The position numbers and the translations under genes are program-made. Positions 5,972 to 54,603 of a DNA stretch of 64,000 nt are shown here, in pieces. The DNA is taken from contig CAYXEO010000002.1 of assembly GCA_964464055.1 (NCBI GenBank), positions 22,145 through 86,144 of the forward strand, read 5' to 3'. The notes under the pieces were generated by a model. That model had not been told where the DNA came from. It saw nothing but the letters and a program-made list of their open reading frames with translations, and made no database searches. Positions within the stretch are counted from its first letter, which is position 1; the number at the start of each line of letters is the position of its first letter. This stretch comes from an uncultured Methanosarcinales archaeon (GTDB lineage Archaea; Nanobdellota; Nanobdellia; Woesearchaeales; GW2011-AR9).

Positions 5972-7042
5972 ATGGATTTTATGGTAGAACAGGCGATGGA
6001 AAATGCGCCAGAGGACAACAACAATTTTGAAAATATGAGTCAAGCTAATATTAAGGTTATTGGTGTTGGCGGTGCCGGCAATAATATGGTTGGTTGGTTA
6101 TATCGGAAAGGAATTAAAGGTGCAGAAATTATTGCTACAAATACGGATCATCAACATTTAGCAATAACGGGTGCAGATAGAAAGTATTTGATTGGTAAAG
6201 AGTGTACAAGAGGGCTTGGTTGCGGAGGGTTCCCTAGTCGAGGAGCAGAAGCAGCTCAAGAATCTTTGATCACAATTAAAGATTCATTAAAACAATCTGA
6301 TATGGTTTTTGTTTGTGCTGGAATGGGTGGTGGAACAGGAACAGGTGCTGCTCCAGTAGTTGCCCAGGTAGCGAAAGATACTGGTGCGATTGTAATTGGA
6401 ACTGTTACTATGCCTTTCAATATTGAAAGAGCACGGTGTGATAAAGCAGAGTTTGGGTTACAACAGTTAAGACAAGTTTCTGACACAGTTATTGTAATTG
6501 ATAACAACCGGTTAGTACAAATTGCAGGAAATTTACCTATTCAACAGGCGTTCTCTGTGGCTAACGAACTAATCTCAACCATGATTAAAGGAATTGTCGA
6601 AGTTATTGCTGTACCTTCTTTAGTTAACTTGGATTATGCTGACGTTAAGGCAATCATGTCTAACGGAGGTGTAGCTGCGATTGGAGTTGGAAGTTCTGAT
6701 ACTAATAACAGAGTGGACGAAGCTGTCAAAGGTGCATTAAGTAACCCATTACTGGACATCAATTATGATGGTGCAACTGGTGCTTTGATACATATCACTG
6801 GTGGTCCAGACATGACTCTTGATGAAGTATCTAAAATTGGTGAATTGGTAACAGAATCTTTGGATGATGATGCTAATGTGATTTGGGGAGCAAGAGTTGA
6901 TGAACCAATGAAAGGAAAATTAACAGTGATGACAATAATCACTGGCGTAAATAGTCCTTGGATTTTGGGTAAAGTAGATCAACAGAAATCTCAGAAAAGA
7001 GCAGAATCAATCACTAACGAGTTAGGGATAGAACTGGTTTAG
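5972..7042 (+). CDS. ftsZ: cell division GTPase FtsZ
   Basis: GVGGAGNN and the [13 protein letters not shown] tubulin signature, with an NxDxxxL T7 region. A GAGGTGG Shine-Dalgarno-like motif lies 8 nt upstream. Confidence 0.9.
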
Positions 7043-23097: not shown

Positions 23098-23187
23098 ACT
23101 TTTTCACGTCAATGTAGTACCGAAGTATAAATTCAAAAACAAATTTTATATTTGTCTGTCACTTATGATTTTCGTGAATAACTATTG

Positions 23188-23271
23188 CCAACGTGGCACA
23201 ATCTGGTACTGCGCAAGCCTGGAAAGCTTGTTTCCTTTTGGATATCCCGGTTCAAATCCGGGCGTTGGCGC
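23188..23271 (+). tRNA. tRNA-Ser (anticodon GGA), long variable arm, no intron
   Basis: Acceptor GCCAACG/CGTTGGC with discriminator G. Anticodon stem CAAGC/GCTTG with loop CTGGAAA. Variable arm TCC-TTTT-GGA. T-arm CCCGG-TTCAAAT-CCGGG. Confidence 0.85.
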
Positions 23272-23334
23272 TCTTTTTTTCTTAATTTTTAATCAGAGGG
23301 TTGATAAGGGCAGACTGCCCTTATGTGAGGAGCC

Positions 23335-23356
23335 CGGGCGTTGGCGCTTTTTTTCA
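23335..23356 (+). repeat. duplicate of the tRNA-Ser 3' end (ccgggcgttggcgct plus T-run), 61 nt downstream of the gene
   Basis: An exact 15-nt copy of 23259-23273 followed by a T7 run. It is preceded by the hairpin GGGCAGACTGCCC. Confidence 0.7.
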
Positions 23357-23454
23357 TTTAATATTTAATTAGAAAATATTTGGTGTTATTACTTTTTTCC
23401 TCCTCCTTATAAACAACACTTTTATATATCATAAAAGTTTCTTTTTATTTGTAA

Positions 23455-36645: not shown

Positions 36646-36816
36646 TTATTCTTTTGTTCTTTTTATTACACATCTCATGAAATAAGTAAACAGTAAAATT
36701 AAAAATACTAGTGTCCATTGAAGTGTATCAAAACAATTAGTATTCAGAACAGCTAAAAGTAAATAGATAATAAATATTCCATTAACAAATTCAACATATA
36801 TCTCTAAAGGATTCAT
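36646..36816 (-). CDS. possible small membrane protein (56 aa)
   Basis: Minus-strand ORF MNPLEIYVEFVNGIFIIYLLLAVLNTNCFDTLQWTLVFLILLFTYFMRCVIKRTKE*, found by hand translation and below the ORF-track cutoff. Confidence 0.2.
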   Translation of the reverse strand: MNPLEIYVEFVNGIFIIYLLLAVLNTNCFDTLQWTLVFLILLFTYFMRCVIKRTKE

Positions 36817-36948
36817 CTTATTAAAGTTAAATAAATCTCATAGGCAGACAGAATTAAAGTAATAGCTCCAGATGCCCAAGCTAATTTATTAAGAATTTCA
36901 TTTTTTTGTTTTTCAGTAATTTTATTTTGAAGTGTGCTTTGTAAGATT

Positions 36949-36971
36949 ATAAAAAATACGGGCCTGCGAAG
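36949..36971 (-). repeat. duplicate of the tRNA-Arg 3' end plus trailer (ataaaaaatacgggcctgcgaag), 48 nt downstream of the gene
   Basis: An exact 23-nt copy of 37020-37042, which is the complement of the tRNA 3' terminus CTTCGCAGGCCCG plus TATTTTTTAT. Confidence 0.7.
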
Positions 36972-37029
36972 CTTTTCACTAAACTTTTACAAAAAGTTTA
37001 ATCAAAAGAAGTTAAATAAATAAAAAATA

Positions 37030-37143
37030 CGGGCCTGCGAAGATTTGAACTCCGGATCTACAGCTATCTTCAGAGTGATAAAAAATCATTTCTTTTTTCG
37101 CTCTTAGGAGGCTGTCGCCCTATCCAGGCTAGGCTACAGGCCC
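37030..37143 (-). tRNA. tRNA-Arg (anticodon CCT) with a ~39-nt intron after position 37
   Basis: Minus strand. Acceptor GGGCCTG/CAGGCCC with discriminator G. Anticodon stem ACAGC/GCTGT with loop CTCCTAA. T-arm CGGAG-TTCAAAT-CTTCG (one G.U). Intron ~37065-37103. Confidence 0.8.
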
Positions 37144-37457
37144 ATTTATTTACAAAAGGACTGTATCTGAGTTTTGTTTGAAAGACAAACAAAAGAAAGA
37201 TGACGGACCCATTTGTTGTTACTTGGATTCTTTCTCTTTTTATAACTTTTCTTTGAAACAAACGAAAATAATAAATTATGGTGTTGATGTTTTTAAGAGG
37301 GATAATACGTTTTGTTTCATATAATTACCAAATTTATACTTTTTTTTCAAGTAATGTAATTGTGTTTAGTTAAAGGAACGTGTTAATTAATGTTATCAAC
37401 TTTTCACCTAAACAAACGAAAAGTATAAAAAGCAACTAGAAATAAAGAAAATGTTTA

Positions 37458-37579
37458 CGTGGGCGTGCCGGAGTGGTCAAACGGGATAGATGATAATTAA
37501 TCAGTCCAAGCTTAGGCCAGATATTCTGGAAGATACCTATTGACTTAGTGTCTACGCAGGTTCGAACCCTGCCGTCCAC
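37458..37579 (+). tRNA. intron-containing tRNA of unresolved identity (best reading: anticodon GAT, Ile; the long extra arm is unexplained)
   Basis: Acceptor GTGGGCG/CGTCCAC (one G.U) with discriminator A. D-loop GAGTGGTCAAA. T-arm GCAGG-TTCGAAC-CCTGC. It is 122 nt, implying a ~35-45-nt insertion. The best anticodon stem is GATAG/CTATT with loop ATGATA(C). The internal hairpin CCAGA-TAT-TCTGG probably lies in the intron. Confidence 0.55.
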
Positions 37580-37641
37580 ATATATTCTTTATTTTCACAT
37601 ACAACATTAATTTTATAAACCTTCTAAATATACTTCTGGCC

Positions 37642-54389: not shown

Positions 54390-54603
54390 AATATGTTTCG
54401 AAATTATGTGGGGATGCTCTTAAACCTTTGATAAAAACTCCCCTTGTACATTCTTTAAAACATCTTTTAAAACAACATATTAATTGAGTTCATAGCGAAT
54501 TTAATATGTTTCGAAATTATGTGGGGATGCTCTTAAACCTTTGATAAAAACTCCCCTTATACATTCTTTAAAACATCTTTTAAAACAACATATTAATTGA
54601 GTT
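54390..54603. repeat. near-perfect tandem duplication (2 x 101 nt, 12-nt spacer, 1 mismatch) containing an imperfect palindrome ATATGTTTCGAAATTATGTG
   Basis: Copy 1 is 54390-54490 and copy 2 is 54503-54603. The only difference is cccttGtaca versus cccttAtaca. Each unit also has a GGGGA...TCCCC inverted pair and an A/T-rich TATA-like tract. Confidence 0.85.

Follow-up and report, generated by a model that had tools for sequence, protein, structure and literature searches.

Direct repeats of the tRNA 3' end beside a hairpin module at two tRNA genes of a low-GC DPANN archaeon

Partial tRNA copies are a standard landmark for integrated elements and a known source of wrong tRNA calls. Integrative elements that target tRNA genes leave one complete and one partial tRNA copy (PMC9897764; PMC6972569; PMC3218864), and in the known tRNA-integrated elements the repeats enclose 9-120 kb together with an integrase gene (PMC9897764). 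The known archaeal att sites in tRNA genes are about 44-100 bp long, span the palindrome of the T-arm and usually include the anticodon (PMC6972569). In Caldiarchaeum subterraneum a 5' fragment of tRNA-Thr, a 1.8-kb insertion encoding a recombinase and the complete tRNA were described together with heterogeneity in the population (PMC3293823); the same publication proposes a link between the integration of mobile elements and the gain of tRNA introns. For tRNA introns, 59/60 is documented as a non-canonical position, and the mechanism of gain and loss is still unknown (PMC4090602).

Here we present two tRNA genes, tRNA-Arg(CCT) and tRNA-Ser(GGA), where this signature spans about 70 bp and is accompanied by a conserved structured module, without an element attached. 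At this scale it would be missed by island-finding tools, and nothing comparable turned up in the literature searched. Both genes lie in a stretch of 64 kb, the whole of which was analyzed and which is referred to below as the window. The organism is a low-GC (about 32%) DPANN archaeon, and the proteins closest to its class II LysRS carry the labels Woesearchaeota or Nanoarchaeota.

Anatomy of the two loci

tRNA-Arg(CCT) is encoded on the minus strand (37143..37030; Rfam tRNA 48.8 bits) and is seen by ARAGORN solely with the intron search, as Arg, cct i(41,39), with an intron of 39 nt. A first-pass annotation of the window had noted a 23-nt exact repeat at this gene with 48 nt between the copies, and both statements were confirmed by exact matching: ATAAAAAATACGGGCCTGCGAAG occurs twice in the window, at 36949-36971 and at 37020-37042, on either side of a spacer (X, 36972-37019) of 48 nt, with a repeat period of 71 nt. 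Zero copies are expected in shuffled sequences, no third copy with three or fewer mismatches is present in the window, and the 13-nt tRNA portion likewise has just two occurrences there when up to two mismatches are allowed.

Read on the tRNA strand, the repeat consists of CTTCG (3' strand of the T-stem), CAGGCCC (3' strand of the acceptor stem), G (discriminator) and TATTTTTTAT (trailer), which amounts to 13 nt of tRNA (positions 61-73) followed by 10 trailer nucleotides, among them a T6 run. [quoted passage not shown] The description of the repeat as acceptor 3' strand plus trailer is right for these two parts but slightly too narrow, as the 3' strand of the T-stem and the discriminator are also included. 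The features of the locus are as follows.

37030..37143, minus strand: tRNA-Arg(CCT) gene, complete cloverleaf with a canonical 39-nt intron at about 37066-37104 (Rfam, ARAGORN intron search)
37020..37042, minus strand: repeat copy R(Arg), which completes the functional tRNA with positions 61-73 and the trailer TATTTTTTAT (exact 23-mer match, Rfam alignment)
36972..37019, minus strand: spacer X(Arg), 48 nt, AT-rich, with no other copy in the window
36972..37005, minus strand: module M(Arg), made of TTGAT, the hairpin TAAACTTTT/TGT/AAAAGTTTA (37000-36980) and GTGAAAAG, abutting R' (regular expression and hairpin scans, fold)
36949..36971, minus strand: repeat copy R'(Arg), the second, stranded copy with positions 61-73 and the same 10-nt T-rich trailer (exact match)

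M(Arg) folds with -12.2 kcal/mol, its stem being extended to 17 bp. The canonical intron of tRNA-Arg (37066-37104, minus strand) holds a U6 tract, AUUUUUUAU, which is almost identical to the trailer of the gene itself, UAUUUUUUAU; because this tract is contained in the intron, a U6 run is no absolute terminator in the organism. Between the LysRS gene and the stranded 3' copy (36646-36948, minus strand) there are two overlapping small hydrophobic reading frames, an ORF of 56 aa and an upstream frame without start codon. Both are annotated by no gene caller and may represent a decayed gene for a small membrane protein. A mirror-image copy of the 5' end of tRNA-Arg, located 67 nt upstream, was dropped as not significant, its score being at null level.

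The same layout was found at the second tRNA for which it had been claimed, the intron-less tRNA-Ser(GGA). Here CCGGGCGTTGGCGCT occurs at 23258 and again at 23334, 76 nt downstream. The similarity of the copies runs about 27 nt into the trailer, with two indels and two mismatches, and the spacer between R and R' measures 36 nt (36-61 nt between the copies). Its GC content is 56%, against about 32% for the genome. This locus comprises the following features.

23187..23270, plus strand: tRNA-Ser(GGA) gene, intron-less (ARAGORN; Rfam 56.2 bits)
23258..23297, plus strand: repeat copy R(Ser), tRNA positions 61-73 and about 27 nt of trailer
23301..23333, plus strand: module M(Ser), made of TTGA, the hairpin TAAGGGCAG/A/CTGCCCTTA (23305-23323) and TGTGAGGAGC, abutting R'(Ser)
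23334..23373, plus strand: repeat copy R'(Ser), 15 nt the same as in R(Ser), then trailer with two indels and two mismatches

R'(Ser) is kept in all strain contigs. Strain differences near tRNA-Ser are limited to two, a SNP in the variable arm at 23238 (T in the window, C in the other assemblies) and an AT-rich insertion of 13 nt, TTTATATATATTG, at about 23378 in the trailer of the second copy, observed in a single strain (locus L212, one ENA assembly).

At both genes the repeat begins at tRNA position 61, directly after the T loop, and the right ends are unequal, reaching 10 nt (Arg) versus about 27 nt (Ser) into the trailer. A simple tandem duplication is ruled out, because at both loci the sequence after R' is unrelated to the spacer. 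The Arg and Ser spacers are unrelated overall, the first being AT-rich and the second GC-rich at the value given above, yet both finish in module M against R'. M consists of TTGA(T), a perfect hairpin of 9 bp that opens with TAA and closes with TTA, and (T)GTGA-RRAG(C). Between the two stems the three closing pairs are identical, whereas the inner pairs, six of the nine, are changed on both sides with none of them broken. M(Arg) and M(Ser) thus differ at 12 stem positions, the structure being kept and not the sequence. As the stems were mis-aligned by MAFFT, this structural comparison was scripted instead.

The modules are 33-34 nt long and the repeat period is 71-76 nt. The hairpin lies internally and asymmetrically in the spacer, 11-14 nt from R and 0-9 nt from R', and both matched tRNA sites are preceded by the T-loop sequence TTCAAAT. 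No local source copy was found for the Arg or the Ser spacer, which, together with the high GC content of the latter, would fit a foreign origin. With a loose definition of M (TTGA, 0-2 nt, a perfect hairpin of at least 7 bp with a loop of up to 6 nt, 0-2 nt, GTGA), both strands of the window and of the loci from relatives, about 1.1 Mb, yielded matches at the Arg and Ser sites only. M and R' are present at both duplicated tRNAs and M is absent from the other three tRNAs of the organism (0/3), and M plus R' is therefore regarded as a linked cassette.

Statistics, relatives and genomic context

Five tRNAs of the organism were examined: the four of the window, and tRNA-Gly(TCC), which is encoded on a contig that shares the start of the window and continues upstream of it. 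The tail of each was aligned locally against its own downstream 400 nt. The score is 49 for tRNA-Arg and equally for tRNA-Ser, against null maxima of 28-29; the remaining three tRNAs score at null level and have no downstream copy. Taken together, the shuffles and the tail-alignment nulls rule out a chance origin of the Arg and Ser repeats, in agreement with the first-pass annotation, which had called two such cases unlikely by chance. Its proposal that one mechanism would have made both duplications is strongly supported as well, by the common start at position 61 and by M lying against R' and nowhere else in the roughly 1.1 Mb.

The structure of both repeats is identical in five independent assemblies (JGI, ENA), all more than 99.7% identical, and an assembly artefact is rejected on this ground. 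The repeat structure is fixed in the population (at least five assemblies), and no empty-site allele was found among the five. Conservation of the spacer between strains, which the earlier annotation had put forward as a point to check, was found in that the spacer is invariant, but this holds within one near-clonal population; because all strain contigs exceed 99.7% identity there is no informative population variation. Elsewhere in the window, at 54390-54603, an intergenic tandem repeat of 113 nt (1.9 copies, 99% identity) was observed; the alignments of the strain contigs L221 and L222 to it show additional or offset segments. This suggests that its copy number varies between strains which are otherwise more than 99.9% identical.

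The nearest other lineage has a LysRS with 74-76% identity, and no closer relative appeared in the LysRS search. In the 80 LysRS loci from related genomes, none of the roughly 12 archaeal tRNAs has a tail copy, and the tail duplication is lineage-specific. There is no conserved synteny around LysRS across the 80 GTDB loci. Many records with a LysRS that clusters with Woesearchaeota/Nanoarchaeota (L011, L014, L019 and others) are titled 'uncultured Methanosarcinales archaeon' (binchicken MAGs), and a few other such records bear the titles Clostridia, Bdellovibrio or Acidobacteriota; these titles seem to reflect taxonomic mislabelling or contaminant contigs.

Next to tRNA-Arg a fourth tRNA, of class II with a long variable arm, is located at 37459-37580 on the plus strand. 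It is homologous to the tRNA-Leu(TAG) of the relative L004, contains an intron of about 40-47 nt and has no downstream tail copy. This tRNA was missed by default ARAGORN and by the whole-window Rfam run at gathering threshold, and is mislabelled as Ile(GAT) by the ARAGORN intron search. In L004, the nearest GTDB relative (LysRS 74% identical), the Leu-type tRNA (6173-6306) comes immediately after LysRS, encoded on the opposite strand, and tRNA-Arg is missing; this tRNA neighbourhood has been rearranged between the lineages. A direct repeat of 32 nt with 81% identity, AACTTTTC...AAACAAACGAAAA.. ATAAA, occurs at 37244-37275 and 37398-37429 on the plus strand. Its second copy is the TATA-like region preceding the Leu-type tRNA. 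No gene is annotated downstream of the first copy, which could be a duplicated promoter or could drive an unannotated small RNA at about 37300-37390.

Among the Pfam families of the genes called in the window and in 9 kb upstream of it, no integrase, transposase, Cas or reverse transcriptase family was found, and tnpB or another effector gene is likewise lacking among the called genes of these 73 kb. All called genes encode housekeeping, surface or unknown proteins, for example aaRSs, ribosomal proteins, FtsZ, MutL, PPDK, CDC48 and a P-type ATPase. Neither a third copy of the repeats nor a larger enclosed element was found in the window. Searches of IMG/VR, JGI metagenome contigs and GenBank phages for an attP-like copy of R, X or shorter cores gave random GC-rich matches only. 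Rfam at E<=5 reported nothing beyond the four tRNAs of the window. X together with R' as a tRNA half, a pseudo-tRNA or another known RNA was rejected on the lack of an Rfam match at this threshold and because the copy is without its T-stem partner.

Explanations of the duplications

Our preferred reading, held tentatively and at somewhat less than an even chance, is that the Arg and Ser loci are footprints of a small site-specific insertion or integration that brought or duplicated a replacement tRNA 3' end. The tRNA gene would have been interrupted right after the T loop, at position 60/61, by DNA with its own positions 61-73 and a T-rich terminator (R) at the left end; because the insert supplies this copy, the tRNA would stay intact. 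The original 3' end (R') would have been displaced 71-76 nt downstream, and the right end of the insert would be the conserved hairpin module M, adjoining R'. As in tRNA-targeting integrative elements, attL would lie in the tRNA and attR would correspond to the stranded partial copy. The two inserts would be relatives within a single element family, each specialised on its own tRNA, which would explain both the common M and the common left boundary. Almost nothing of the element would remain, or it may always have been a non-autonomous stub; the insertion would have been carried out by an enzyme encoded elsewhere, either an integrase or an enzyme that generates target-site duplications by nicking, and R' and M are probably inert now. 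The difference between the right ends fits this reading, being expected for att identity blocks as well as for a first nick at a fixed and a second at a variable position. Since nick-and-fill, with one fixed and one variable nick and a target-site duplication, fits equally well, no enzyme is named.

Several points stand against such an insertion. The repeats enclose 36-48 nt only and no mobile-element gene; they begin after the T loop, so that the 5' strand of the T-stem and the T loop are not duplicated; two elements each eroded to the terminal module are not predicted by random deletion; and the complementarity of M to the T loop in the register of a splice motif is left unexplained. The suggestion of an 'integration/excision scar' in the first-pass annotation is borne out by the direct repeat of the tRNA 3' part beside an intact tRNA, but not by other features of integration: the insert is very short, an integrase in the 64 kb and a T-arm palindrome are missing, the viral, phage and metagenome collections searched yielded no attP, and the five near-identical assemblies contain no empty site.

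The splice motif concerned is a potential bulge-helix-bulge (BHB) at the Arg locus.

36972..37049, minus strand: potential bulge-helix-bulge motif of the Arg locus (BHB scan, validated on the canonical intron of tRNA-Met)

Its outer helix of 5 bp is formed by CGGAG, the 5' strand of the T-stem, and CUUCG of R', and its central helix pairs UUCA of the T loop (37049-37046) with UGAA (36978-36975), all 4 bp being Watson-Crick. The bulges are AAU (37045-37043) and AAG (36974-36972), and there is an inner helix of 2 bp. The predicted cleavage would remove exactly 71 nt, the repeat period, from an intron position of 59/60 and would join ...GGAGUUCAAA to GCUUCGCAGGCCCG. In shuffles of X the frequency of the 4-bp helix in register is 0.0125, and that of the complete motif, 2-bp inner helix included, is 0.00065. 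At tRNA-Ser a BHB is obtained in relaxed form only, from UUCA/UGAG with a bulge of 4 nt and an inner helix of 1 bp, and its product would have a T loop of 8 nt.

X could accordingly be read as a BHB intron at 59/60 with R' as the true 3' exon, i.e. as a T-loop intron that is either a fossil or a usable alternative 3' exon, although we regard this as unlikely. In this scenario a copy of the 3' exon and terminator (R) would have been placed later at the 5' splice site, which would yield a working intron-less gene and leave the old intron and exon stranded. The canonical hBHBh' geometry at Arg with its low shuffle frequencies, the agreement of the excision length with the repeat period and the recovery of the known tRNA-Met intron by the same scan speak for it, as does the presence of UUCA/UGAG at nearly the same place in Ser, where, however, the bulge of 4 nt, the almost complete lack of an inner helix and the 8-nt T loop weaken the parallel. 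Position 59/60 is a known non-canonical intron site (PMC4090602), four of the five tRNAs of the organism contain introns, whose 39-52 nt are close to the length of X, and the U6 tract in the Arg intron shows that the U6 trailer need not terminate transcription absolutely. A T-loop intron would also account for the start of both repeats beside the T loop. On the other hand, spliced tRNA-Arg would carry G60, whereas all five tRNAs of the organism have a pyrimidine at this position. Nucleotide 60 moreover differs between the tRNA and the base before R' in Arg as in Ser, so that R does not simply reproduce an exon whose first nucleotide is 60. An unusual exon duplication of this kind would have had to occur twice, the identity of 10-27 nt of trailer has no rationale at the RNA level, and the intact tRNA gene is complete without splicing.

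The 'processing-related element' that had been offered as the alternative to a scar consequently finds a canonical BHB at Arg but no clean version at Ser. In a wider form, the loci might represent an undescribed tRNA architecture of DPANN archaea, a 59/60 BHB intron or a mobile intron-like element with an internal copy of the 3' exon and a terminator; this, too, is rather improbable. If it were true, the gene could mature in two ways, either with termination and RNase Z processing at the first copy or with splicing to the second after read-through, and the loci would capture a moment in the gain or loss of archaeal tRNA introns by T-loop-targeted DNA insertion.

It is equally doubtful that local errors of replication or repair, by template switching or slippage near a hairpin, happened twice independently without a mobile element and without a function. 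Hairpins are known hotspots for template switching, the duplications are short-range and situated in intergenic DNA, and the neighbourhood is free of mobile-element genes. Such errors, however, do not lead one to expect an arrangement that is not head-to-tail and spacers that are not copied from nearby sequence, and a common boundary at 61 with a common flanking module is very unlikely for independent events; M is also absent from the three tRNAs without a duplication.

There is only a slight chance that M and R' form a small functional RNA gene, like a solitary CRISPR-type repeat with a self-matching or homing spacer. Its RNA would have a repeat-like hairpin, an 8-nt handle, a guide identical to the 3' end of the tRNA gene and a U-run terminator. 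The succession of a 5' flank, a hairpin, 8-9 nt, a guide-like match (13-23 nt) and a T6-7 run does mimic repeat-spacer units, the module length and period given above are CRISPR-like, TTCAAAT before both matched sites could serve as a PAM-like motif, and the stem is conserved in structure rather than sequence. Yet the two 'repeats' differ at the 12 stem positions, a second repeat is lacking, and the 73 kb contain no cas, tnpB or other effector gene; no convincing promoter lies at the right distance, no Rfam family matches, and identity to the target is equally explicable by plain duplication.

Three further candidates were dropped: a K-turn or C/D-box reading of the UGA...UGA flanks, which fits the Ser module and not the Arg module, an internal BHB within M, which is not supported, and a MITE with terminal inverted repeats or a casposon-like duplication of 14-15 bp, the geometry of which does not fit.

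Comparison with known systems

If M marks a family of tiny insertions that target tRNAs, it would indicate that a mobile or recombination activity has gone unrecognised in the reduced genomes of DPANN archaea. If instead the splice-motif reading is right, the Arg locus would offer a concrete intermediate for how non-canonical archaeal tRNA introns arise or vanish.

The two modules differ from a CRISPR array or solitary repeat in not being identical to each other and in the absence of cas among the called genes. With target-site duplications of transposable elements, MITEs and target-primed insertions the loci share the order repeat-insert-repeat, one fixed and one variable boundary, and an insert with a conserved 3' end and a variable 5' part. 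Unlike in these, no terminal inverted repeats abut the duplications, which are long and unequal (23 versus about 41 nt), and unlike in transposable-element families just two copies are known, with stems that differ in sequence.

The hBHBh' geometry of the Arg motif, the intron-like size and the richness of the organism in tRNA introns resemble the archaeal BHB introns at 59/60. In contrast to these, the tRNA is complete without splicing, the 'intron' would hold a copy of the 3' exon and a U-run, and the Ser locus shows the relaxed motif only. The tRNA-Thr case of Caldiarchaeum has in common with the present loci a tRNA fragment and a complete tRNA in direct orientation with inserted DNA between them; it is the 3' part, however, that is duplicated here, with less than 50 nt and no gene in between and without heterogeneity.

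Compared with elements bounded by attL and attR, only 36-48 nt and no gene are enclosed here, and whereas known archaeal att sites reach further into the tRNA, the present repeats begin after the T loop and are 23-41 nt long. Like the attL/attR repeats of the pT26-2 family plasmids, of SSV/pNOB8-type elements and of genomic islands, both loci carry, downstream of an intact tRNA, a direct partial copy of its 3' part, with an identity block that extends beyond the tRNA 3' end, and as in those systems related elements would use different tRNAs.
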